The notes under the pieces: model-generated
The model's input: the letters and a program-made list of their open reading frames with translations, nothing else
Databases searched by the model: none
Told to the model about the DNA's origin: nothing
Made by a program: the position numbers and the translations under genes
In this document: piece after piece, positions 5,714 to 57,932 of the stretch
Position numbering within the stretch: position 1 is the stretch's first letter
How the letters are laid out: each line of letters begins with the position of its first letter
Source of the DNA: an uncultured Planctomycetia bacterium
GTDB taxonomy: Bacteria; Omnitrophota; Gorgyraeia; CAYWPX01
Direction: 5' to 3'
DNA length: 64,000 bases
NCBI GenBank assembly: GCA_964460615.1
Contig: CAYWPX010000002.1
Location: 7,220 to 71,219 of the forward strand

Positions 5714-7117
5714 TCACTTAGCGCCTATACCAAATACCACTACCGGTATCGTCCTTAACAGTATATTCACATCCAGCCATAACGACCAATTATCAATATA
5801 TTCGAGATCCAATTTCATCCATTCCTCAAAATCGCGTATTTTATTGCGGCCCTTGATCTGCCATATGCAACTCAAGCCGGGCTTCATGCTAAGACGCCGC
5901 CTTTGCCAATAATCATATTCTTTGACCTCTTTCGGAAGCGGCGGCCTGGGCCCTATAAGGCTCATGTCGTTCTTTATAACATTCCACAGTTGGGGCAACT
6001 CATCCAGGCTGAATTTTCTTAGGAATCTGCCTATCGGCGTGATCCTGGGGTCATTTTCCATCTTAAACACAGGGCCATCCATTTCATTAAATTTCTTTAA
6101 GCTATCAAGCATAGCTTCTGCGCCTTCAAACATGGTCCTGAATTTATAAAATACGAACTTCCTGCCATTGAGCCCGCACCTTTCCTGCTTAAAGAATACA
6201 GGGCCGCTTGATGTAAGTTTGATAATAACCGCGATGATCGTCAAAAGCGGCGACAATATGACGAGAGCAATAGATGAAAAAATGATATCAATAAGACGCT
6301 TTATTAAAAGAGACCACACTTTATTCGGCGTGCACTCAAAGGTTAGTAAGGGAAAACCATGAAAATCGGCCTGTCTGGGCCGTGAAAGTTTGAGGTTAAA
6401 ATAGTCAAGTGCTACATGCACTTTAAGCCCCTCGGTCTCACAAAAACGCATGATATCCTCTATATCGTAAATCCAGGAACGCGGCACAACGAATATGACC
6501 TCATCCACAACATTATTATTTACGATATCTGGGATATCATCAAAAGACCCGAGTACTTTATAATTATTTATGGATTGATTTTTTCTTGAAGGGTCCTTGT
6601 CAACCATGCCGATTATCCTGAACCCGCATTCATTGTGATTTTCGATCAATGAAACCAGGTTTTCTGCCCTTTTACCCGTACCAACAATAAGAAGGTTCCG
6701 GTAATTATGCCCTTTTTCACGCATGATCCTTACTATGGTTATCAGTATGATCTTCTCAGCCAATATCAAGAGCGCTGACAGCGAAATAGAAAAAACTATT
6801 ATGTCTCTTCCTATATATGTCATATTGAACATGAAAATAAAACTGATAAAAAATAAGAGAGTGAATATACCTGCTTTCGGTATAATATATATTATTTCAT
6901 TGATAGACTTTATCCTGAAAGACTCATACATTTCGAAGAAATAGAGCATTGCAACCCAGATAACAGCGAACACAACCGGGAGGCCCTTAAAACTCGTATA
7001 CATATATATATCACCCTTGGTCTCCAGGTAATATATGAGGTAAAAAGCAAGAAGAGTTATGCCGAAGTCGGCCAGTATCGTAAGCCTTCTGAATACGGTA
7101 GAATACTGCTTAAGCAT
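5714..7117 (-). CDS. undecaprenyl-phosphate sugar phosphotransferase (bacterial sugar transferase, WbaP/WcaJ/EpsL-like priming enzyme)
   Basis: N-terminal TM helices and a C-terminal domain KRLIDIIFSSIALVILSPLL...GPVFFKQERCGLNGRKFVFYKFRTM...DELPQLWNVIKNDMSLIGPRPPLP, the Bac_transf signature. Confidence 0.8.
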   Translation of the reverse strand: MLKQYSTVFRRLTILADFGITLLAFYLIYYLETKGDIYMYTSFKGLPVVFAVIWVAMLYFFEMYESFRIKSINEIIYIIPKAGIFTLLFFISFIFMFNMTYIGRDIIVFSISLSALLILAEKIILITIVRIMREKGHNYRNLLIVGTGKRAENLVSLIENHNECGFRIIGMVDKDPSRKNQSINNYKVLGSFDDIPDIVNNNVVDEVIFVVPRSWIYDIEDIMRFCETEGLKVHVALDYFNLKLSRPRQADFHGFPLLTFECTPNKVWSLLIKRLIDIIFSSIALVILSPLLTIIAVIIKLTSSGPVFFKQERCGLNGRKFVFYKFRTMFEGAEAMLDSLKKFNEMDGPVFKMENDPRITPIGRFLRKFSLDELPQLWNVIKNDMSLIGPRPPLPKEVKEYDYWQRRRLSMKPGLSCIWQIKGRNKIRDFEEWMKLDLEYIDNWSLWLDVNILLRTIPVVVFGIGAK

Positions 7118-7227
7118 CTTTTTTGCTCCCTCCTATACGCGGCTTAATCATATATTTTAAATAGTCATTGCAGTTATAAATTAAAACTTTGTAACAATTA
7201 CCAGAAAAGACATAGATATCAAAAAAA

Positions 7228-7425
7228 TTAAATGCCACACGACTTTTGCCGCATGGCAATATAATTTTCTATCTCTTGATCTGAGATCCTGTAGCCGCCG
7301 CGCCGCCCCTCTTTGTATGCGGCGATTTTTTTCTGCCTTACCAAAAGGCGTAAATGCCCCTCGCTAATACGTAAGATCTCGGCCGCCTCTTTTGTAACAA
7401 GCAATTTTTCTGGTTTCATATGCAT
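7228..7425 (-). CDS. small helix-turn-helix DNA-binding protein (excisionase/MerR-like HTH_17)
   Basis: 65 aa; LVTKEAAEILRISEGHLRLLVRQKKI is an HTH motif. Confidence 0.5.
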   Translation of the reverse strand: MHMKPEKLLVTKEAAEILRISEGHLRLLVRQKKIAAYKEGRRGGYRISDQEIENYIAMRQKSCGI

Positions 7426-7457
7426 TTCAATCCAATATAATATTTTTTAATATCATT

Positions 7458-7768
7458 TATAATTATAAAACAATCCGTGATTTAGAAAAGTGTCGGTTTC
7501 TACTTTTTCTTGACTTTTTTCTACCCATTTTCATTACTTATACCCTCAACAAAAAAATCGGCAATACCGATCGAGCCCCCGATATCTCCCGCCAATAATT
7601 AAAATGCTATTCAGTAGTTTCTTTGTTTTCATATGTATTCCAATTCAGCATAAGATTTTCTAATAGAATTTAATATGGTATGACAATTATAAAAAAATCC
7701 GCAATTAAGAAAAGCGGCGCATTATACTTATTTTTGACTTTTTTCTACCTATTCTTACTACTTATTCT
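7458..7768. repeat. tandemly duplicated ~85-bp promoter/regulatory module (copies ~7458-7545 and ~7684-7768)
   Basis: AATTATAAAA[C/A]AATCCG..A..AAAAG..TCGG....TTGACTTTTTTCTACC is about 80% identical between the two copies. Each copy ends in the TTGACTTTTTTCTACC motif. Confidence 0.6.
7510..7525 (-). promoter_or_regulatory. conserved motif instance 1 (plus TTGACTTTTTTCTACC; gene-sense GGTAGAAAAAAGTCAA), 85-100 bp upstream of the HTH gene
   Basis: Exact 16-mer shared with instances at 7734-7749 and 9632-9647; variants at 11141-11157, 13648-13663 and 15168-15183. Confidence 0.5.
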
Positions 7769-7821
7769 TTTTAGAAGTAAGATAGTGTCATATAAGTATC
7801 GCGGTAAGCGAGATAAAATAC

Positions 7822-9576
7822 CTACATCTCTGATTGAAAAGTAAAGTAAAATGTGGAAGGTCCTGCCCCTGGGGTAGGTTTATCACCAACACTACCTGCC
7901 CAATAGAGGCGCATTGACAAATGTTTAAAATGCAGTAAAAGTCCTCCTCCTACTCCGGCAAGAAATTTACTTTTTTTCTCCCCTGAAAAGGCCTTGCTTA
8001 ACCCTCCTCCTCCTATATCAACGAAAAATACCGGTTGTATCTGATTGCGCAACGGAGTATCCTGGCCAGGAAGCTTCAAGTCATTGGGTATGAAGTATGT
8101 AGGGAATACCCAATCAAAATTCACTACTGCCCCTGTATCCGCAAGGTAATCACCTTCAGGGTAACCTCGTACGGAATCCGCTCCGCCCAATTGGAACTGT
8201 TCGGTGGGCGCAAGAGTATGTGTAGCAGTTTGGAAGCGGCTTCGGATCGTCATGTAACTTTCTAGGAACATCTTCTGCAGCCGATTCAATGAATGCTCAT
8301 ATTTGAAGAAAAAACCTCCCGAGTTCGGCCTGCTCAGTTTGGAATAATCCCGCGAATACGCTCCAAGAAACCTTGCCGTACCAAAACTAAACCTGGGAGA
8401 AAATGACGATTGGCCGGTCATATCTATTTTTGATACATCAAAACCAATATAAGGTATACGAAGCTGGTCATTCGAGGAAGTGGTGCTGCCTACATTATTT
8501 ATCACGGACTTAATGTCAATACCAAGATTCGCATAAGTCTCGGAACTTTCTGATAATTCGAGCTCCCAGGCCAGATAAGGTGAGTAGATCTGCGTATTAC
8601 CCGTGATCTTAAAAGGCTTTAATTCCTTACCCAACTTTGACCAAAAATATGTCGCATTTACGCCCAGCTTTGTCCCATAGGTCCCTACCGGAATACTATA
8701 ACTTACTGATTCGCCAAATGATTTGCCGCTATAGATCGTGCTTAAGAAAATATTATCTCCGAGACCGGAAACGTTTGAACTGCGGATAGTCCACATAGAG
8801 CGGTACTTCCCTGAGAGGCGTGACCCGCGGTTATCCTCCAGGAACCCTATATGCCAGGGGAATTTGTCGTCCACTTTCAGGTATATATCGGATGTTTGCG
8901 GCTCTTTGCCGGTTGAAATCACTGCTTTTATATCAAGGTCAGAGTTTTTGTTGAGGCGCAGGATATCCCTTGCCAAAGTCCTTATGTTCAAAATCTCATT
9001 TTTTTTTAAGTGAATGAATTTTTTTATAAAATCGGTTGAAAACCACTTATTATTTTCAATATTCAGATACCCCATTCTGCCTTCGGCAATACGTAACTCC
9101 ACAGCACCATCCCTGATCTCCTGTTCGGGGATATACACTATGGAAGTTAGATACCCTTTTTTCTTATATTCCAACTCTATCATATTGGCAATTGTCTCAA
9201 TATCGGTAAAGGTAACGGATTTACCGATGTAAGGCTTGTAAATAAATTCAAAATCCTGCCTTTTAAATTCAGTGGATCCCGTGACATTAACTTCTTTTAA
9301 TATAAAGGATGGGCCTTCAATTTCCGGCCGAACTTTCTCTTTTTCAATTTCTATCTTGGGGGCTTTTGGCGTTTTATATTCAAGGTACTTTTTTGCTCTC
9401 TCGCTATCATACTTATAACGCTCTGCCTGCGCGCCCGGTTCCTGCCCAGAAGGTAATCGTGGAGTTTCTTGAGCCAGCGCCCAAATTTCGCAAAAAAAGA
9501 TAAATAAAATCAAAAAAGCCGCTTTACATGCGACCTTCTCGATGATATTGCTACATACCAGATTATCTTTTTTCAT
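7822..9576 (-). CDS. ShlB/FhaC/HecB-family outer-membrane transporter (TpsB-like, POTRA plus beta-barrel)
   Basis: Signal/TM start AAFLILFIFFCEIWALAQE. POTRA-like FILKEVNVTGSTEFKRQDFEFIYKPYIGKSVTFTDIETIANMIELEYKKKGYLTSIVYIPEQEIRDGAVELRIAEGRMGYL. The long C-terminal region is rich in beta-strand pattern. No TpsA partner is present in the window. Confidence 0.55.
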   Translation of the reverse strand: MKKDNLVCSNIIEKVACKAAFLILFIFFCEIWALAQETPRLPSGQEPGAQAERYKYDSERAKKYLEYKTPKAPKIEIEKEKVRPEIEGPSFILKEVNVTGSTEFKRQDFEFIYKPYIGKSVTFTDIETIANMIELEYKKKGYLTSIVYIPEQEIRDGAVELRIAEGRMGYLNIENNKWFSTDFIKKFIHLKKNEILNIRTLARDILRLNKNSDLDIKAVISTGKEPQTSDIYLKVDDKFPWHIGFLEDNRGSRLSGKYRSMWTIRSSNVSGLGDNIFLSTIYSGKSFGESVSYSIPVGTYGTKLGVNATYFWSKLGKELKPFKITGNTQIYSPYLAWELELSESSETYANLGIDIKSVINNVGSTTSSNDQLRIPYIGFDVSKIDMTGQSSFSPRFSFGTARFLGAYSRDYSKLSRPNSGGFFFKYEHSLNRLQKMFLESYMTIRSRFQTATHTLAPTEQFQLGGADSVRGYPEGDYLADTGAVVNFDWVFPTYFIPNDLKLPGQDTPLRNQIQPVFFVDIGGGGLSKAFSGEKKSKFLAGVGGGLLLHFKHLSMRLYWAGSVGDKPTPGAGPSTFYFTFQSEM

Positions 9577-40751: not shown

Positions 40752-42236
40752 TTATTCATTCAACTGCGCCAATGTCTGTTGAAGGGCTGAAAAATCCGCC
40801 GTACTTGCTAAGACCAGCAAAACATCTCCGCCTTCTATAATTACAGATCCGGATGGTATGATAAATTTATCATTTCGGGAAATAAGCATGATGAGGCATT
40901 TCTCCGGAATATTTAAATCGTTTATCGTTTTACCCACTACATTTGAATTATACGGCACTATAATATCTGTCAATTCCGCATCGATACCGTCCGTTTTTTC
41001 AAATTCTATTGGATAGCTCTTCCTGTAAGCAAATGGAACATCCAACTTCAATATTTTAGAAACGAATGGAATGGACGTCCCTTGAATAAAAACCGACGCG
41101 ATAACGACAAAGAATACGATATTAAAATAAATATCCGCTCGCGGAATACCCGCCATAAAAGGAAATGTCGCGAGAATAATCGGAACTGATCCTCGCAATC
41201 CAACCCAGGCTATCATGATCTTTTTTCGAATACCCATTCTGAACGGCAAGAGGCATAACATCACGCTGAGCGGGCGTGCTATTACCATAAGAAGAACTGT
41301 CAACAGTACCCCTACTCCGATCAAAGGAACAATTCGCGAAGGGAAAACAAGCAAACCCAGCGTCACGAACATAACTATCTGCATGAGCCACGCTAACCCG
41401 TCATGAAATTTCAAAGTCATTTTTTTGCCCGGGAATTCCGCCCGGCCTAACATCAGGCCGGCAATGTATACCGCAAGAAAACCATTGCCCTTCAAAAGGA
41501 TAGTTATTGTGTAAATCAAAAGGACGAGCGAAATCATCAGCCCCAGGTAAAGGCCTTCATATTCCAATTTTAAATGGTTTATAAAAAATATTACAAATTT
41601 CGCCATAAGATACCCTATAATGGCCCCCATGCCCATATCGAGCATAAACTTTGGAATGAGATAAGCTATGTTTGTGTTTTTTTCTGCAATAAGACTTATG
41701 AATCCTATGGTCAGAAAAACCGCCATTGGGTCGTTGCTGCCGGATTCGAATTCAAGAAGCGGCTTTAACGGACTCCTGAGACTGATTCGTTTTGATCTAA
41801 GGATGGCAAAGACAGCTGCAGCATCGGTGGAGGAAACTATAGAGCCGAGAAGCATTCCTTCTAAAAAAGAGAATTTTAGAAGATATACTGCGAAGAATCC
41901 CGTAATTATCGCAGTAAGTAGCACTCCTAAAGTCGAAAGTACAACCCCTGGCCAAACAATAGGTTTAGTATCTTTCCAATTGGTATCAAGGCCTCCGGAA
42001 AAAATAATAAAAATTAGGGCCACAACGCCTATAGACTTGGCAAGCCATGGGTCGTCGAAATAAATACCGCCGAGACCTTCCGATCCGGCGAGCATTCCTA
42101 TCGCGAGAAATAGTAATAGGGCGGGAACTCCAAATCTATCGGATATTTTACTGGCGACGATGCTGAAAAGCAATAAAATGCTTCCACCTAACAACAGATA
42201 TTCGAACGATATGTTGACTGTATGTGCGGAATTCAT
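40752..42236 (-). CDS. NhaP-type K+(Na+)/H+ antiporter (CPA1) with TrkA_C domain; paralog of 28019..29482
   Basis: Near-identical in blocks to copy 1 (e.g. GLRGSVPIILATFPFMAGIP). Confidence 0.8.
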   Translation of the reverse strand: MNSAHTVNISFEYLLLGGSILLLFSIVASKISDRFGVPALLLFLAIGMLAGSEGLGGIYFDDPWLAKSIGVVALIFIIFSGGLDTNWKDTKPIVWPGVVLSTLGVLLTAIITGFFAVYLLKFSFLEGMLLGSIVSSTDAAAVFAILRSKRISLRSPLKPLLEFESGSNDPMAVFLTIGFISLIAEKNTNIAYLIPKFMLDMGMGAIIGYLMAKFVIFFINHLKLEYEGLYLGLMISLVLLIYTITILLKGNGFLAVYIAGLMLGRAEFPGKKMTLKFHDGLAWLMQIVMFVTLGLLVFPSRIVPLIGVGVLLTVLLMVIARPLSVMLCLLPFRMGIRKKIMIAWVGLRGSVPIILATFPFMAGIPRADIYFNIVFFVVIASVFIQGTSIPFVSKILKLDVPFAYRKSYPIEFEKTDGIDAELTDIIVPYNSNVVGKTINDLNIPEKCLIMLISRNDKFIIPSGSVIIEGGDVLLVLASTADFSALQQTLAQLNE

Positions 42237-42253
42237 TTCTCACATTGGTATAT

Positions 42254-43174
42254 TTACCATTTTTTGCGCCACCAGAAAACAGCGATTATCATAACCGACA
42301 ATGCCGCTAACGCGAAGATAAACCAGAATGACAAGAAACCCTCATGTTGAGGAATCGGCAACTTCACATTCATAGAAAATAGGCTGACAATAAACGTGGG
42401 AAGCATTATACAAATCGACAGGATCGTGAGGGTCTTCATGCGGATATTTAAATTATTGCTCACCATAGAAACCCACGCGTCCATCATATTGGATATCACC
42501 TGCAGGTATATGTTAGCCTCTTCATTGCATTGCGTCGCCTCTATAGTCATATCTTCCAGAAACTCATTCTGCTCCTGCGATAAAGATATTTTCGCTGAAT
42601 TCGATTTTATCTTTTCAATCACTCGTGAATTGGAGCTTATTGCCTTTAAATAATATACCAGACTTTTTTCTAAGCTGAACATATAGAGCAAGTCCTTGTT
42701 GGTCAAGGCTTGGTTAATCTCTGCCTCAAGCTCGTTAGACACTTTATGTATTACACCAAGGTGTTCCTCGAAATGCTGGACACAACGAAATATCGTTTTT
42801 AAAAATATATCGGAAACAGAATTTAATTTTTGGAATATCCTGCTGTCAAATATATCGGTATCCTCATTCGCCACAATAATTACCTTGTCTAAAAATAAAA
42901 ACAGCCCTAAAGATGATACCTTGAACAGGAAGTTATCCGTGGCGGTATACTTCTTTGGACATTTAATAATGGCCGCTGTATGATTAGGCTCAAATTCCAG
43001 CCGGCCGAGCTCATCCGGATCCAATGCTGAATTATACGTGTGCTCATCTAGTTTAAGCTCGTTGATAAGATAGCTCGTTTCGCGTTCATCGGGTTTGGTA
43101 TAAATATGAACGGCGCCGTGCCCGCCTTCTACTTCTAACAATCTGCTTTCAACTATATTGTAGGTTTTAAGCAT
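42254..43174 (-). CDS. CorA-family divalent cation (Mg2+/Co2+) transporter, GMN-motif variant (SMN)
   Basis: Two C-terminal TM helices with FSMNVKLP in the loop position of the CorA YGMNF signature. Confidence 0.6.
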   Translation of the reverse strand: MLKTYNIVESRLLEVEGGHGAVHIYTKPDERETSYLINELKLDEHTYNSALDPDELGRLEFEPNHTAAIIKCPKKYTATDNFLFKVSSLGLFLFLDKVIIVANEDTDIFDSRIFQKLNSVSDIFLKTIFRCVQHFEEHLGVIHKVSNELEAEINQALTNKDLLYMFSLEKSLVYYLKAISSNSRVIEKIKSNSAKISLSQEQNEFLEDMTIEATQCNEEANIYLQVISNMMDAWVSMVSNNLNIRMKTLTILSICIMLPTFIVSLFSMNVKLPIPQHEGFLSFWFIFALAALSVMIIAVFWWRKKW

Positions 43175-43230
43175 ATCACTGATATTATACTACATAAAAT
43201 GCAAAATGAAAACCCAATGAGGGATAAAAC

Positions 43231-43306
43231 AAAAAACCTTTCCGCTTGATCTCGGAAAGGGTATTTTTTTAATAAAAATAAAAGCCGATAAAGATATCAG
43301 CGGCTT
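43231..43306 (-). terminator. tandem (bidirectional) Rho-independent terminators
   Basis: Minus strand: AAGCCG-ctgatatctttat-CGGCTT + TTTTATTTTTATT (plus 43282-43306; minus-strand T-run 43271-43281, just outside the stated span), then CCTTTCCG-agatcaag-CGGAAAGG + TTTTTT (43231-43260). T-runs are also present on the plus strand. Confidence 0.7.
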
Positions 43307-43468
43307 TTTCTCCTCTTTTGTCTTTCCACCGCTGGTCTTCGGCAACCCAACTACCTTTCCAGCCTTAACACCTGGCTGACGAAGGCTTGTGGCTTTGCGC
43401 CCCACGATTTCTCGTGGTTTACCTTTATCGGCTATATATAGCTTACCATACTATCTTGCTTTTGTCAA
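43271..43468 (-). promoter_or_regulatory. structured leader/sRNA element upstream of corA: promoter plus antiterminator/terminator attenuator (M-box riboswitch-like)
   Basis: TTGACA (43468-43463 on the minus strand), a 17-nt spacer, then TAAGCT. Leader segment GCCGATAAAG (minus, 43433-43424) is exactly complementary to CTTTATCGGC inside the terminator hairpin (43293-43284). AGGTGTTAAGGCT and GGAAAGAC resemble M-box conserved blocks. Confidence 0.45.
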
Positions 43469-43494
43469 GATTAACAATGAATTCTTTCCAATAA

Positions 43495-43635
43495 TTACTT
43501 AGCTTTGTCATTCTTCTCTGCCGAAGGATTATCCTTTTTCTTCTTACCACCGGAAAATATCATAAAGCCAACCCATATTATCGCTCCAGCAAATAGTGCG
43601 TATACAATCCAGTCTTGAGATAAGTTGCCAGTCAT
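43495..43635 (-). CDS. unannotated 46-aa single-TM small membrane protein (paralog of 29560..29694)
   Basis: My translation: MTGNLSQDWIVYALFAGAIIWVGFMIFSGGKKKKDNPSAEKNDKAK. Confidence 0.5.
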   Translation of the reverse strand: MTGNLSQDWIVYALFAGAIIWVGFMIFSGGKKKKDNPSAEKNDKAK

Positions 43636-43720
43636 ATGTAATTTCCTTTCTTTGGCTTGTGCAGCCATTTTAGAAACACGTAATCCCCTTAATATCAGGG
43701 GGACGACGCTATTCAGGAAA

Positions 43721-44092
43721 TTACGCTCCGGGAGGCGCTAAGGAGTAGCAGGATGATATCTTGGCAAGATATAAAGTCGGGCGCTCGATCTGCATCACTA
43801 TTATGCAGAAGAGCGCCATTGATAACGAAGATACAATGGCAGATTCTTTAAAGAGAGTTAATTTTGATAGCTTGTTCAAAGAATGGCTACTAATACTTAG
43901 TCTTGCAGGTAATGAAACGAGGCATGTCGTAACACTAAACTCTCCCGATATTACAGAATTGTTCTCGTTGAAATGATGCGGCCATGAATGAGAAAGTGAA
44001 TTCGGAATAAAAAATACACAATAATATATGGATAAAACACATATCGCCAGTAGTTTTAGAGCTTTCTTGTCTATTTTAAGATAAACCCTCAT
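43721..44092 (-). CDS. hypothetical membrane protein (SLAPP-terminal family), paralog of 29776..30141
   Basis: See copy 1. Confidence 0.35.
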   Translation of the reverse strand: MRVYLKIDKKALKLLAICVLSIYYCVFFIPNSLSHSWPHHFNENNSVISGEFSVTTCLVSLPARLSISSHSLNKLSKLTLFKESAIVSSLSMALFCIIVMQIERPTLYLAKISSCYSLAPPGA

Positions 44093-44226
44093 TATGATAA
44101 CTTGTCCTTTGTCTATTCAATTATATCATTTTTCTTCCGTTTTTACTAAAAGTGCGTTTGAATTAAATATCGTTTTTTGAACATCGAATGCGGCTATTTC
44201 TTGTGCCCTGCTTTTTCTGACCAGCC

Positions 44227-44706
44227 TCATTTTAGAGATTTTTTAATACCTGATAGTTTTAAGAAATGGCTTCTTTCTTCTTCGACAATCTTTTCGATAA
44301 CCGTCTTTTGACAATCCGGCACGAAACCTTTAATCTCTTGGTAGTAGTTAATGGAATCGAGTTCGACTTCGATCCCAAACTGGATGGCCTCCTTTATGTC
44401 TTTTACCTTCCCTGCCATAAGCTGCCCTGTTTTTTCTTTGCTGAAGACATGTTCGTCGGCGAAAGCATGCAAATAGGCTTCGTATTCACCCGGATAACTA
44501 TCCACCATTTCATATTGTTCTGTTTTTGAAAGCATCTCTTCAAAAATCTTGCGGTGCCGTTCGTCTTCATCCGCTAAGAAGTTAAAGATATTCTGCAAAT
44601 CTCTTGCTTTGAATTTTTTCAGCATTTCTCGGTAAAAAATAATACCATTTTCCTCAATGCGTATAGCGGTCTTTAAGATTTCTGCGGCTTTAAATATCTC
44701 GGACAC
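44227..44706 (-). CDS. rubrerythrin-like ferritin-like di-iron protein
   Basis: Two E-x-x-H motifs (DEDERH, EEERSH) in a four-helix-bundle-sized protein. Confidence 0.55.
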   Translation of the reverse strand: MSEIFKAAEILKTAIRIEENGIIFYREMLKKFKARDLQNIFNFLADEDERHRKIFEEMLSKTEQYEMVDSYPGEYEAYLHAFADEHVFSKEKTGQLMAGKVKDIKEAIQFGIEVELDSINYYQEIKGFVPDCQKTVIEKIVEEERSHFLKLSGIKKSLK

Positions 44707-44720
44707 AATGAATTTCTTTC

Positions 44721-45065
44721 TTATTTTGCTCCAATATATTCTTTTAATGCCTGCGCATTATTGTGTTTATCATCTTTTGCCGCGTATAAAAGCGTTATGT
44801 TATTTTTAGCTTTTTTGGGAACTTGATTAATAAGGTCTTTCTTTTTATCGAGTTCTTTAAAATATTTGCGTTTGAATTCCATCCATTTTGCGGGGTCATG
44901 GGCAAACCATTTTCTTAACCGATCGCTCGGAGCAATATCTTTTAACCAAAGATCGATTTTTGCTTTATCCTTACTCACGCCTCTCGGCCATAGCCTGTCC
45001 ACAAGAATTCTAAAACCGTCGCCATCCAAAGGAGTCTCATAAATTCTTTTTATCTTTATCATCAT
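44721..45065 (-). CDS. DUF488-family protein
   Basis: [26 protein letters not shown]...[17 protein letters not shown] matches the DUF488 core. Confidence 0.55.
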
Positions 45066-46472: not shown

Positions 46473-48155
46473 TTAATAATCGCTTGGATCCGGTACGAAG
46501 CGATCCTTCACTTCCCTGTGAACCTGCGGATGGTCTATATATCTTAAATCGGGTATACCTCTGAGTTCTCTGCTTTCCGTTATTCGCCGTGCAGTCGATA
46601 CTGGATGCTTCCATACGCGAGGGGTAATCTCGATATTGCTTACAATCATTTCAAGAGCATCCGGCCCGTCATCGTGCAATCCATTCGGGAAAAATCGGAA
46701 TTGATCTAATAAGGTCTTATGTGACAGAGAAAACTGGATAGTTCCTCTATGTATCAAGGAATCCAGTACGTGAATCCTCTTATTCTTATCCCCTCTATTA
46801 TCAACACCTATGATAGGCATATAGAGCCCCTCTGTATCAAGCTGTTGCTGTAGGTCATCCCTCATCAATTTCTGAAAATTATTTATTTCAATAATAAAGG
46901 ATGACGGCCTGTATAGCCTGCATAAATCCATTATCCGGGATACGGTTTCCTTGGGGCCTCTGCGATGGATATCGGCCTCTACAACATACAGTCGGCCATT
47001 CTCGCGGTCTCTTGCCACCATAATTATTGCCGCATAATCTCCTCGCGAGGTGTCGTCGCCCACACACGGGTCGCAGCTACCGATGAAGTCAAGCCAGTCT
47101 TTGCGCGCATCCAATAAATCATGCACGGAATCGTAGGTTTTCTCGATATAATGGAATTTAGCTACGTTAAAAACCGACGACTTGGGATCATAAGGCTCGT
47201 TTTGCAGTTCGCACGAGAATGACAGATGGTTTTCTTCGCGCAGAACCGCAAGATCGTAATAGCTCCATTTTTCAGGCCAAAGAAGCTCGACTCCTTCATC
47301 CATAGCCGCTTTATTTGCCTCATAGAGGGCCCTGGCGGCATCCGGGCCGTATTTGCCCTCGAAGTCCATCTTGTTATTATAGATTTCTGACCACTTCGAC
47401 CAGAGAGACATGTTTTTGGGGTCCGTTCGTATTGCTTTATATATTTTCTTTATCCATTCACGGTTATGATCCGGGCTCAAATATTCATTCAAAAGGCAAA
47501 GCGGATGATATAAAGTTCCCATGAAGATGAAATTCGTATTATCATCTCCGGCCATGAGGACCGACTTGGTAAACCATATTCTTAACTTTTCCATCGATGT
47601 TTCCGAAGCGGTGTCATCCGGTGTTTCTACGTCGTCAATGACTACAACGGTCGGACGGTCTTTGCCGTATTTCGTTCCGCGTATCTTCTGCCCCCGGCCA
47701 AGCGCATGCACCTTTATGCCGTTAAGCGTTTCTATTTGGGCTTTAGTCCAGCGTGGTGGTTTGGGCCTATCTTCTTTTTCAAATATCTCCGGGAAGTCGA
47801 TCCTGAATTTTTCATTCTCGGTCAACTCTTTCTTGACGTTATCGAGTATCTGTATTGCCTGATCCGCCGTATCGGAAAGAATCACTATGAATTTTTCCTT
47901 CTGATAGCAAATGGCATAGATTATATAAAATAATGATATAAGCGTGGATTTAGCAAAGCCTCGCGGCGCGGCTATGGCCACTCTTTTATTTCTGTCTTTC
48001 ATAATTGTTTCGAGAAGCTCATAAACCTCTTTATGCGCGGAAGACGGCTTGATCTTAAAGTAATGCGGCAAGTACATCTTGGCAAACGTATATAGGGATT
48101 TTTCCGAAGGCTTCTTACGCAGTGAACTGATTCCTTTTAATATATTATTTGTCAT
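46473..48155 (-). CDS. phage terminase large subunit
   Basis: Walker A VAIAAPRGFAKST, Walker B VVVIDDVETP, and a C-terminal RNase-H-like nuclease region with acidic residues. Confidence 0.8.
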   Translation of the reverse strand: MTNNILKGISSLRKKPSEKSLYTFAKMYLPHYFKIKPSSAHKEVYELLETIMKDRNKRVAIAAPRGFAKSTLISLFYIIYAICYQKEKFIVILSDTADQAIQILDNVKKELTENEKFRIDFPEIFEKEDRPKPPRWTKAQIETLNGIKVHALGRGQKIRGTKYGKDRPTVVVIDDVETPDDTASETSMEKLRIWFTKSVLMAGDDNTNFIFMGTLYHPLCLLNEYLSPDHNREWIKKIYKAIRTDPKNMSLWSKWSEIYNNKMDFEGKYGPDAARALYEANKAAMDEGVELLWPEKWSYYDLAVLREENHLSFSCELQNEPYDPKSSVFNVAKFHYIEKTYDSVHDLLDARKDWLDFIGSCDPCVGDDTSRGDYAAIIMVARDRENGRLYVVEADIHRRGPKETVSRIMDLCRLYRPSSFIIEINNFQKLMRDDLQQQLDTEGLYMPIIGVDNRGDKNKRIHVLDSLIHRGTIQFSLSHKTLLDQFRFFPNGLHDDGPDALEMIVSNIEITPRVWKHPVSTARRITESRELRGIPDLRYIDHPQVHREVKDRFVPDPSDY

Positions 48156-48156
48156 T

Positions 48157-48822
48157 TTATTCCTCCTTTTTGGGTTTTATCTGTTTAAGCACTCCTACCT
48201 CGAAGGCCATCTCAGCCTTTTCGATCTTGAGCGTCAACGATTTTGCCTCTTCCTGAAGTTCCGGCGTCAAAGTATCTGTTTCCTTCGCGGTATTTATAAC
48301 ATCTTCTATCATCTTTCTAAGCTCGGGAAATGACGCATCTTGGCCTATGCCGTCTATGTGGTGATAAATATCGCCGACGACGCCCACGGGGGCTTGCGGA
48401 AGAAATCCGAGCGCCTGGAGTTTCGTTATCGCATCAATAAATACCTTGGCGGCAAATAGCTCTGCCTGCGCCCTTTCGGAAACCGACGCATCCTTGGATC
48501 TGGCGAGCTTCATCAGATGATCTCTGTGGATACGACCATACATTATCGTTTCACTGGCGAGATTCTTTCGCGCATCCGCATCTAAAGTATCCGCGTTACG
48601 CCTTATCACCCATTCGATATCCCTTTTAATAGTTTTTTCCGAACGTTTAAAGAACTGCGCCATAGCAGGCACGGCCATGCCCTCTCGAAGTAACGTATCA
48701 ACGCAAGCTTGCCGCTCTTCTTTGGTCAGGTTATCTACAGAAAACTCTCCGTCCTTTATCCGCTGAATAAGTGAAAACGTCGGCTGATCATTCTTATCCC
48801 GCAAAGAATCGTTATTTTGCAT
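48157..48822 (-). CDS. HTH-containing protein, possible terminase small subunit
   Basis: Sits immediately upstream of TerL with a 1-bp gap; HTH-like AMAQFFKRSEKTIKRDIEWV. Confidence 0.35.
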   Translation of the reverse strand: MQNNDSLRDKNDQPTFSLIQRIKDGEFSVDNLTKEERQACVDTLLREGMAVPAMAQFFKRSEKTIKRDIEWVIRRNADTLDADARKNLASETIMYGRIHRDHLMKLARSKDASVSERAQAELFAAKVFIDAITKLQALGFLPQAPVGVVGDIYHHIDGIGQDASFPELRKMIEDVINTAKETDTLTPELQEEAKSLTLKIEKAEMAFEVGVLKQIKPKKEE

Positions 48823-50119
48823 CGGTAGGCTCCTTCAGATATTTATCCACGACATTCTGCGAAACATTCTGCCTGCCAACATAGGCTATATATCGGCGAA
48901 TGATCCCGTCTATGTACTTTGGCTCTATCTCCATGCCGTAGCAACGTCTGCCAAGACTTTCTGCAGCTATGAGACTGGACCCACTGCCAAGAAACCCATC
49001 GAATATAACGTCGCCCCTTACAGAGCTATTGCGGATTGCTCTGACCGGAAGCAAAGTGCTCTTCTGCGTCGGATGAATCAAGTCTGACGCCTTGTCCCTT
49101 GCCACTTCCCAGAGATTACTCTCATTCGTAGGGCCATACCACTTGTGTGGGGCGTTCTTAAGCCATGAAAAAATGCAGAACTCTGTTTGCTGGTTGTAGT
49201 CTCCATATGAAATCGCAAACGTAGGCTTAGCCCAAGTAATGATTGTTGAGATATGGAACCCAAGTTCTTTTAGTACTTGGTGAACAAAATAGAACTTGGC
49301 ATGCCCATTCCAAATATAGGCTGATGCCCCTTCTTTTAAATAGCGTCTTATATTGCTTAAGACGCTTTTAATCCATGCCTCATATTCTTCCTCGCTTAAA
49401 TTATCTTTATACAGCGCGTCCCATCGCTTGGATTTCTTGGGTCGTGCTGTAAGATCGGGGCGATCTTGGGCAAGATAGAAACAGCCGTACGGAGGGTCTG
49501 TATGGAGGAGATCTATTTTCGCATCTTGCATTAACATATCCATATCACTTTCTAATGCAGAGTCCCCACACATAATGCGATGGTTGCCTAACTGAATAAT
49601 ATCTCCTCTCTTGGTGATAGGCTCCTTAATGGCGGCAACTGCGGCTTCAAAATCGAAGTCATCCGGGTCCTTAGGCTCACGTAGCCCTTCTAAAAACTTG
49701 TCTACTTCAGAAGAGTCAAAGCCGGATAAACTTAAGTCTATATCCGGAAGCTTGCTTAACTCTTCAATTAGAAGTGGCAGCTTATCAAAATCCCATTCGC
49801 CTTGTATGCGATTTAATGCCAAATTTAAAAGCTTTTCCTTCTCTATGGAAAGGTCAACGATGACCACGTCTACCTCTTTATAGCCAAGCTCAATCAAGGC
49901 GCGTAGCCGCTGATTCCCTCCCACGACATGCCATGTTCGCGAGTTAACAATAAGCGGCTCGTAGCACTCGTAGGTCTTAATACTCTCCACGAGCTTCCTA
50001 AATTCATTTTTTCTCATCTTGCGCGTATTGTACGGCGCAAACTTTACCTGCTCAATAGGCAACTTGTCTCTTTTCATGGGTATTTTCCTTTTATTTTTTG
50101 TGTAAAAAATAGTCTGCAA
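48812..50119 (-). CDS. ParB-like nuclease domain fused to DNA N6-adenine/N4-cytosine methyltransferase (beta-class)
   Basis: N-terminal ParB/Srx motif HVVGGNQRLRAL; MTase motif IV LLHTDPPYG precedes motif I VIFDGFLGSGSS. Confidence 0.75.
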   Translation of the reverse strand: MQTIFYTKNKRKIPMKRDKLPIEQVKFAPYNTRKMRKNEFRKLVESIKTYECYEPLIVNSRTWHVVGGNQRLRALIELGYKEVDVVIVDLSIEKEKLLNLALNRIQGEWDFDKLPLLIEELSKLPDIDLSLSGFDSSEVDKFLEGLREPKDPDDFDFEAAVAAIKEPITKRGDIIQLGNHRIMCGDSALESDMDMLMQDAKIDLLHTDPPYGCFYLAQDRPDLTARPKKSKRWDALYKDNLSEEEYEAWIKSVLSNIRRYLKEGASAYIWNGHAKFYFVHQVLKELGFHISTIITWAKPTFAISYGDYNQQTEFCIFSWLKNAPHKWYGPTNESNLWEVARDKASDLIHPTQKSTLLPVRAIRNSSVRGDVIFDGFLGSGSSLIAAESLGRRCYGMEIEPKYIDGIIRRYIAYVGRQNVSQNVVDKYLKEPTDAK

Positions 50120-57608: not shown

Positions 57609-57686
57609 TGGGGTGGGTAACCGGATTTGAACCGGCGACGTCTTGAGCCACAGTCAAGTGCTCTGCCAGGCTGAGCTATACCCACC
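57609..57686 (-). tRNA. tRNA-His (GUG)
   Basis: Minus strand: G-1 then GUGGGUA acceptor; anticodon loop CUGUGGC (GUG); T-loop GGTTCAAATCC; discriminator C73; encoded CCA. Cloverleaf folds by hand. Confidence 0.85.
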
Positions 57687-57855: not shown

Positions 57856-57932
57856 TGGTCGGGGCGCTCAGATTCGAACTGAGGACCCCTTGCTCCCAAA
57901 GCAAGTGCGCTAGCCAGCTGCGCTACGCCCCG
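57856..57932 (-). tRNA. tRNA-Pro (UGG)
   Basis: CGGGGCG acceptor paired with CGCCCCG; anticodon stem CTTGC/GCAAG with loop TTTGGGA (UGG); T-loop TTCGAAT; ACCA end. Confidence 0.85.

Follow-up and report, generated by a model that had tools for sequence, protein, structure and literature searches.

A probable class I c-di-GMP riboswitch upstream of a CorA-family gene

The 64,000-nt stretch of DNA analysed here (the window) carries, ahead of a gene for a CorA-family channel, an RNA element that we read as a class I c-di-GMP riboswitch (GEMM-I fold) with its own promoter on the minus strand and with a first terminator, T1, that would be released by c-di-GMP. Judging from sequence comparison and structure models, we estimate the probability of this reading at roughly 70%. 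The element would represent a further member of the c-di-GMP-I class, present in uncultivated bacteria and apparently following an unusual platform logic, and c-di-GMP is the likely ligand of the aptamer upstream of corA.

The riboswitch, both terminators, both promoters and corA all lie on the minus strand. The corA gene (42254–43174, ATG at 43174) encodes a protein of 306 aa that matches Pfam PF01544 (E=9.8e-41) and aligns to the M. jannaschii CorA 4cy4. Between it and a small transmembrane ORF (43668–43495, minus strand), the initial annotation had described a promoter, about 150 nt of hairpin-rich RNA, two strong terminators and a second TATAAT close to the corA ATG, all of which we recovered. 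The riboswitch promoter, read directly from the sequence, spans 43440–43468, with the -35 element TTGACA at 43468–43463, a 17-nt spacer and the -10 element TAAGCT at 43445–43440. The latter agrees with TATAAT at only three of six positions and was missed by a consensus scan; upward of 25 related loci share the geometry, their -10 element reading TATATT, TAAACT or TATACT. It is kept in the related loci L002, L005, L006 and L172 and, as TTGAAA-17-TATACT, in more than 20 loci in which a GH1 beta-glucosidase gene follows (GH1-type loci). Transcription is predicted to start a few nt ahead of GCCGAU. A 276-nt stretch of the region folds well beyond shuffled sequences (z = -4.8), and none of the 200 shuffles equalled it.

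An aptamer comprising P1, P2 and P3 is located at 43337–43432 (minus strand), and covariance models establish its identity at the sequence level. Scanning positions 42000–45000 with all 4227 Rfam families under permissive filters, we found that RF03167 (clan CL00126) matched over its whole length (model positions 1–80 of 80) with 62.8 bits (gathering score 59; E=8.5e-14). In a scan of the whole window at gathering thresholds, a second family of clan CL00126 also exceeded its own gathering score; besides the aptamer of this clan, only two tRNAs were returned (57612–57685 and 57859–57932, minus strand, 63–65 bits). Other families in the region gave far-sub-threshold matches caused by the two terminators (STnc370 with 29.6 bits vs 54; trpB; L10 leader). 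RNAalifold predicted 27 pairs across 11 relatives, 12 of them with both sides changed, supporting P2 and P3. A 71-aa ORF (43405–43190) overlaps the aptamer; a coding reading was rejected since the stems vary by compensatory substitutions, which fits an RNA better than a protein.

Structural work on Vc2 places the two c-di-GMP guanines in pairs with G20 and C92 and shows A47 in contact with the ligand (PMC5888326). Aligned to the model, the window aptamer has G as the last base of J1/2, A as the first base of J2/3 and C ahead of the 3′ strand of P1. It appears to hold the canonical triad G20/A47/C92 (Vc2 numbering) and reads as a canonical c-di-GMP sensor. With Vc2 (Vibrio cholerae; RF01051) it shares the three-helix fold, the GAAA tetraloop on P2 and G/A/C at 20/47/92, and with the RF01051 class in general a covariance match above threshold, a position 5′ of a gene and an expression platform made of an intrinsic terminator. 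It differs from both in that P3 of the corA-type loci is without the canonical 11-nt tetraloop receptor and position 91 is G, in that the 3′ arm of the terminator pairs with the 5′-most strand of the aptamer and not with a local arm alone, and in that it stems from uncultivated lineages (bins labelled Omnitrophota and others). The canonical P3 receptor, CCUAAG...UAUGG, is kept in GH1-type relatives, and CCUUCGU...GGAAAGG stands in its place in the window, L002, L005 and L006. A full-text literature search directed at CorA returned no association with a c-di-GMP riboswitch, as far as titles and abstracts tell, and we met no published account of the GH1 association either.

Near its C-terminus, the CorA-family protein (42254–43174) has SMN (..LFSMNVKLP..) compared with the GMN signature, which reads YGMNF in 4cy4. 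The motif is the same in the window, L002, L005 and the contigs with an identical protein (the four relatives whose protein sequence was inspected), and judging from it the ion carried by such a protein may be one other than Mg2+.

Pairing between the aptamer and the first terminator

The 5′ end of the aptamer had previously been noted to be complementary over 10 nt to the first terminator, and this complementarity is exact: GCCGATAAAG (43432–43423) has its reverse complement at 43293–43284, with two occurrences in the window against 0.24 expected. It lengthens to a helix of 12–14 bp between the 5′ strand of the aptamer and the segment just ahead of the first U-tract, with a duplex energy of -19 kcal/mol in the window. 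We denote the two partners as strands A and B. Strand A (AGCCGAUAAAGGUA, 43420–43433, minus strand), delimited by the model alignment, holds the 5′ strand of P1, the ligand-contacting junction J1/2 with the equivalent of G20 and the first pairs of P2; hence A:B and the ligand-bound fold are mutually exclusive. Strand B (AUCUUUAUCGGCU, 43283–43295, minus strand), delimited by the exact 10-mer complement, is also the 3′ arm of T1. This predicted terminator (43271–43301, minus strand) consists of the hairpin GCUGAUA-UCUU-UAUCGGC (43301–43284) and the U-tract UUUUAUUUUUAUU (43283–43271), and its local stem is weak (-7.1 kcal/mol). A terminator consensus scan returned six sites in 3 kb against 2.6 expected, T1 and a second terminator, T2, both among them; as modelled, both show the G+C-rich stem directly before a U-tract that characterizes intrinsic terminators.

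The A:B pairing is borne out by comparison across loci. A perfect complement of 9–13 nt exists in about 28 of them, and in all modules the minimum-free-energy fold from the start of the aptamer to B has an A:B helix of 11–14 bp that encloses the aptamer. In an alignment of the A and B segments with 26 rows, almost every cell of the 12-bp core is paired, and sliding the register lowers pairing from 82% to 27–45%. Both sides changed in L112 (U-A to G-C) and L119 (G-C to U-A), and wobble changes occur in L101, L092, L110 and L128. As strand A belongs to the aptamer and is conserved, covariation is sparse; the stronger argument for the pairing is the invariance of B within an otherwise hypervariable expression platform.

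Between the aptamer and B, a linker helix at 43298–43334 (minus strand) pairs CAGCGGU (43334–43328) with GCCGCUG (43304–43298) at a duplex energy of -11.2 kcal/mol. Compensatory changes bear it out as well: the pairing reads CAGCGGU:GCCGCUG in the window, CGGCGAC:GUCGCCG in L002 and CCAGCGG:CCGCUGG in L005. In corA-type loci this helix sequesters a third copy of GCCG that would otherwise be able to build the small local T1 hairpin. Its purine-rich loop ACAAAAGAGGAGAAAAAG (43305–43322, minus strand) is kept in L002, L005 and L006, including the most divergent corA-type locus. The loop resembles a Shine-Dalgarno sequence, and a start codon does not follow; a small ORF behind the SD-like GAGGAG was discarded as no start codon stands at a usable distance in four loci.

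Conservation of the module in uncultivated bacteria

Relatives of the CorA protein, 57–93% identical, were found on ten MAG contigs, whose bins are labelled inconsistently (Omnitrophota, ‘Planctomycetia’, ‘Patescibacteria’, Elusimicrobia). The same aptamer precedes corA in three relatives (L002, L005 and L006) and in the contigs with an identical CorA protein. The gene upstream of the riboswitch varies between a small transmembrane ORF, a DUF488-like gene and a phage terminase gene; as this neighbour differs, the link between riboswitch and corA is not merely frozen synteny. Scanning metagenomes with an aptamer pattern yielded 120 loci, about 28 of which have the architecture of the window: a near-consensus promoter, an aptamer starting with (A/U)GCCGAUAAAGG, the complement CUUUAUCGGC with a U-rich tail behind it, and a second strong terminator. 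At this level the conservation of the module is evident from the sequences. A GH1 beta-glucosidase (at least 15 syntenic loci), a NUDIX hydrolase, a small zinc-ribbon protein or corA is encoded behind the modules. The genes adjoining c-di-GMP riboswitches in poorly known uncultivated bacteria would in this way gain a CorA-like channel with SMN for GMN, a GH1 beta-glucosidase and a NUDIX hydrolase.

In 11 modules a TATAAT, often as TGnTATAAT, stands 5–11 nt ahead of the start codon; about five others have a repeat insert between promoter and start codon. MITE-like inserts bounded by long terminal inverted repeats (GAGCACATAACTTATGGAG ... CTCCATAAGTTATGTGCTC) are located at about 2560–2690 in L092 and at the equivalent place in L101, L185 and L108, where they separate the post-T2 promoter from the downstream start codon. 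The GH1-type synteny (L092, L096, L098, L101, L151, L185) comprises an MFS transporter, a lipoprotein ending in ..GKVGPKTWAxLSKHL.., the riboswitch module and GH1. Two short contigs with an identical CorA protein, L012 and L013, start inside the aptamer (positions 1–20 of each) at ..TAAAGGTAAACC; that the assemblies broke at the conserved 5′ strand hints at an element that recurs within those communities or genomes.

About 3 kb upstream of the riboswitch, the window contains a phage-like cluster on the minus strand (46473–48155 and 48812–50077) with a terminase large subunit (phrog_38, E=2e-94) and a ParB-like DNA methyltransferase (phrog_498, E=8e-115). A homologue of the terminase gene also exists in L005 (810–2531), where it ends about 190 nt ahead of the riboswitch, and the riboswitch–corA unit may be located at the border of a prophage-like element. 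A first viral scan with a loose pattern gave 67 loci, all chance matches within coding sequence, and the viral pattern scan revealed no copies of the riboswitch module. No GGDEF, EAL or HD-GYP motifs were found in the window and 16 loci, 64 kb being too small to be informative in this respect.

The second terminator and the promoter of corA

Terminator T2 is predicted at 43226–43261 (minus strand), where the terminator scan returned the hairpin CCCUUUCC...GGAAAGG (43260–43237) and a U-tract (43236–43226). T1 and T2 lie 110 and 63 nt ahead of the corA ATG. Unlike T1, T2 has no overlap with the strand competing with the aptamer; it formed in every fold, and no conserved alternative pairing between it and the aptamer was found. 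Of the 20 module loci whose downstream sequence is long enough to be read by eye, 19 have a T2 and L113 shows none, and its stem differs between loci by compensatory changes, which fits a structural terminator. We considered a switch at T2 through pairing of the 7-nt GGAAAGG of P3 with the 5′ arm of T2, which is possible in the corA-type loci and by eye has no equivalent in the GH1-type. Likewise, pairing of the T2 tail with codons 3–5 of corA (AGGUUUU:AAAACCU) was dropped, as the window is complementary there and L002 and L005, inspected by eye, are not.

Behind T2, corA has a promoter of its own at 43184–43212 (minus strand), returned by the scan with 10 of 12 matches: a -35-like TTTTCA (43212–43207), a 17-nt spacer and TATAAT (43189–43184), only 9 nt ahead of the ATG, i.e., of the leaderless type. 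The block is kept in L001, L002, L003 and L006. L001, whose CorA is 93% identical, has neither riboswitch nor T2, yet has the block TTTCATTTT.CATTTTATGTAGTATAATATCAGTGATATG; its retention in this riboswitch-less relative identifies it as corA’s own promoter, separate from that of the riboswitch. A Shine-Dalgarno sequence is absent ahead of the corA ATG in the window; other window genes do use GGAGG-type sites. The same layout, with TATAAT 5–11 nt from the start codon and no Shine-Dalgarno sequence, occurs in L096, L098, L110, L135, L151, L154, L166, L195 and L157 as well as in the window (43184–43174), and the promoters of these TATAAT-proximal genes look like leaderless-type promoters.

Given the independent promoter near the ATG and the missing Shine-Dalgarno sequence in the window, a simple model in which read-through turns on corA does not fit. 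Past T1, polymerase would meet T2, which is apparently ligand-independent, and then the separate corA promoter. With T2, this promoter and no Shine-Dalgarno sequence in the way, read-through at T1 appears to have no obvious route to corA expression. Any effect on corA could come from a leaky T2 that gives a leadered mRNA or from promoter occlusion or polymerase hand-over at the junction of T2 and promoter, or there may be none. The layout of A:B terminator, T2 and leaderless-type promoter poses the question of whether, and how, a riboswitch can govern a gene that has no 5′ UTR.

A dual-terminator arrangement is known from Bc1, a c-di-GMP-I riboswitch of Bacillus thuringiensis, in which c-di-GMP unfolds T1 and T2 persists and hides the response (PMC11218506). 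In both cases a GEMM-I aptamer is followed by two rho-independent terminators, 28 bp apart in Bc1 (PMC11218506) and with 23 nt between the stems here; T1 is ligand-sensitive in Bc1 and predicted to be so here, and T2 is apparently constitutive. In contrast to Bc1, where an RBS and the start codon follow T2 on the same transcript, T2 of the window is followed by the independent promoter with its 9-nt distance to the ATG. Zur binding has also been reported for Bc1.

It is conceivable, though on balance we doubt it, that corA is under no control in cis at all and that the element is a stand-alone small RNA responding to c-di-GMP through its T1 and T2 ends, or that T2 masks the response as it does in Bc1 (PMC11218506). 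Such a view would agree with the order of own promoter, two terminators and independent corA promoter, with the persistence of the latter in L001, where riboswitch and T2 are missing, and with the occurrence of T2 in 19 of 20 readable modules; downstream of the module in L191 there is only a convergent tRNA and no co-oriented gene. However, the modules precede the next gene in the same orientation, the corA link survives three different upstream neighbours, and a conserved target-pairing segment was not found. Should T2 merely mask the switch, this would be a second, independent instance of a puzzling design.

Riboswitch-controlled non-coding RNAs such as EutX/Rli55 (AdoCbl riboswitch) and SreA/SreB, which we take to alternate between a short and a long transcript that does not enter a coding gene, offer a further comparison. 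The long form of this type bears a functional segment (ANTAR sites or target pairing), whereas the extra 45 nt of the long form in the window consist only of an AU-rich spacer and the T2 hairpin.

A scheme that would retain control in cis without any action through a 5′ UTR is more speculative, and we regard it as rather improbable: the riboswitch would gate polymerase traffic from T1 to T2, with A:B as the regulated terminator, and leaderless genes would be set by promoter occlusion or hand-over. T2 directly adjoins the independent promoter, and in the GH1-type loci its 3′ arm, TTGGGA, stands 16–18 nt ahead of TATAAT, at the position of a -35 element.

Polarity of the switch

Strand A can contribute to the c-di-GMP pocket or to the helix with B, but not to both at once. 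Without c-di-GMP, the A:B helix of 12–14 bp would form, enclose the whole aptamer and, ending at the U-tract, serve as the stem of T1, so that transcripts would end after about 150 nt. Binding of c-di-GMP would lock A and the 3′ strand of P1 within the aptamer, and the conserved linker helix would hold the third GCCG copy; B would then be partnerless and polymerase would get past T1. This polarity, with termination at T1 in the ligand-free state and read-through in the presence of c-di-GMP, is the one towards which we lean on the basis of the folds.

Since the U-tract follows directly after B, whichever helix takes up the 3′ end of B, A:B included, resembles a terminator. In partition-function folds of the full RNA, the last three bases of B were paired with a probability of 1.0. 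As a proxy for a ligand-locked aptamer, we folded the segment downstream of the aptamer alone. With the aptamer excluded in this way, the last three B bases were paired at a probability of 0.12 or less in each of the four corA-type loci. Of the 20 other modules, 11 had no base reaching 0.5 at all three B positions; the B ends of L086, L154, L185 and L195 remained well paired. Yarnell and Roberts reportedly observed in 1999 that pairing of the 3′ arm in trans suffices for transcript release. The position of B at the U-tract, these fold probabilities, the effect of 3′-arm pairing in trans and the unfolding of T1 in Bc1 all favour a switch that is turned on by its ligand.

The initial annotation had proposed an antiterminator/terminator switch. 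That the 5′ end competes for the 3′ arm of T1 stands; the antiterminator polarity is doubtful, as A:B itself ends at the U-tract. Of the two alternative conformations considered there, the local T1 hairpin formed in some constrained folds, whereas A:B was present in every minimum-free-energy fold. Under the opposite polarity, A:B would be an antiterminator, and c-di-GMP would lock A, let B pair with GCUGAUA (43301–43295) and allow T1 to form, making an OFF switch. We consider this unlikely, albeit with some points on its side: the terminator scan detects precisely the local hairpin with its U-tract, and the hairpin arises when the downstream segment is folded with its U-tract free to pair, as well as in one fold with A blocked. 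A relative, L112, has B as the 5′ arm of a terminator further downstream, which makes A:B a genuine antiterminator there. However, A:B reaches the same U-tract and should terminate by itself, and the weak local stem (-7.1 kcal/mol) has to compete with the conserved linker helix (-11.2 kcal/mol); without the aptamer, the bases at the end of B have a pairing probability of 0.12 or less in corA-type loci. In the GH1-type modules, moreover, the sole local partner of B is the 3′ strand of P1, which would be occupied in a ligand-bound aptamer. We therefore retain the polarity in which c-di-GMP releases T1.

Ligand specificity

RF03167, the top-scoring Rfam model, describes c-di-GMP-I-GGC, and the aptamer could in principle be a specificity variant, of the GGC or another type, for a different signalling nucleotide; we judge this very improbable. 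The window shares with RF03167 the G, instead of A, just ahead of C92 and the GCCAC / UGCCGAAG context, and its P3 is missing the canonical tetraloop receptor, which would suit a variant. However, G20 and C92 are canonical, and where the consensus ...GACGCGAAgCc... has the name-giving G of J2/3, the window (...GGCGCAAAGCC...) is mismatched in that column and has A. We take ‘GGC’ to name positions 20/47/92 (after Weinberg et al. 2017). Judged by its sequence, the window aptamer lacks the G at J2/3 that defines c-di-GMP-I-GGC (RF03167). Among sister modules with the same core, the best match alternates between RF01051 and RF03167, with 60–81 bits on RF01051 (gathering score 35), and according to a published survey the two models recognise the same sequence set (PMC9943018). 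In view of the canonical triad, the alternating best match in the sisters and this survey, we treat the ‘GGC’ label as a matter of model competition. A c-AMP-GMP riboswitch (GEMM-Ib) was rejected, too: the position-20 base is G in the window (AAAGG). The diagnostic base of that class is presumably A20.

An M-box riboswitch that senses Mg2+ and governs an Mg2+ channel, as the initial annotation had suggested from the neighbouring CorA gene and two M-box-like blocks, has practically no likelihood left and stands refuted by the sequence and structure models, as RF00380 gave no match at E<=10 under permissive filters in 42000–45000 and none at its gathering score in the whole window, the model search returning the c-di-GMP-I aptamer of clan CL00126 instead, as the GEMM-I aptamer and two terminators account for the whole region, and as the identical module type also precedes GH1 and NUDIX genes. 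Both words do exist, one in the variable loop of P3 and the other in the linker, without support from a covariance model. What holds of the leader reading is a promoter-driven, ligand-sensing structured leader, in which Mg2+ sensing has no part; a plausible call is corrected here, the presence of a CorA gene being no proof of an M-box.

One locus of the set combines a similar aptamer with another kind of gene. In L153, another GEMM-I aptamer (6431–6700) precedes a protein with HAMP and adenylate/guanylate-cyclase domains (ORF 6696–9482), and the complement of the 5′ flank of the aptamer (AAGAGCCGA:UCGGCUCUU) again precedes a U-tract.
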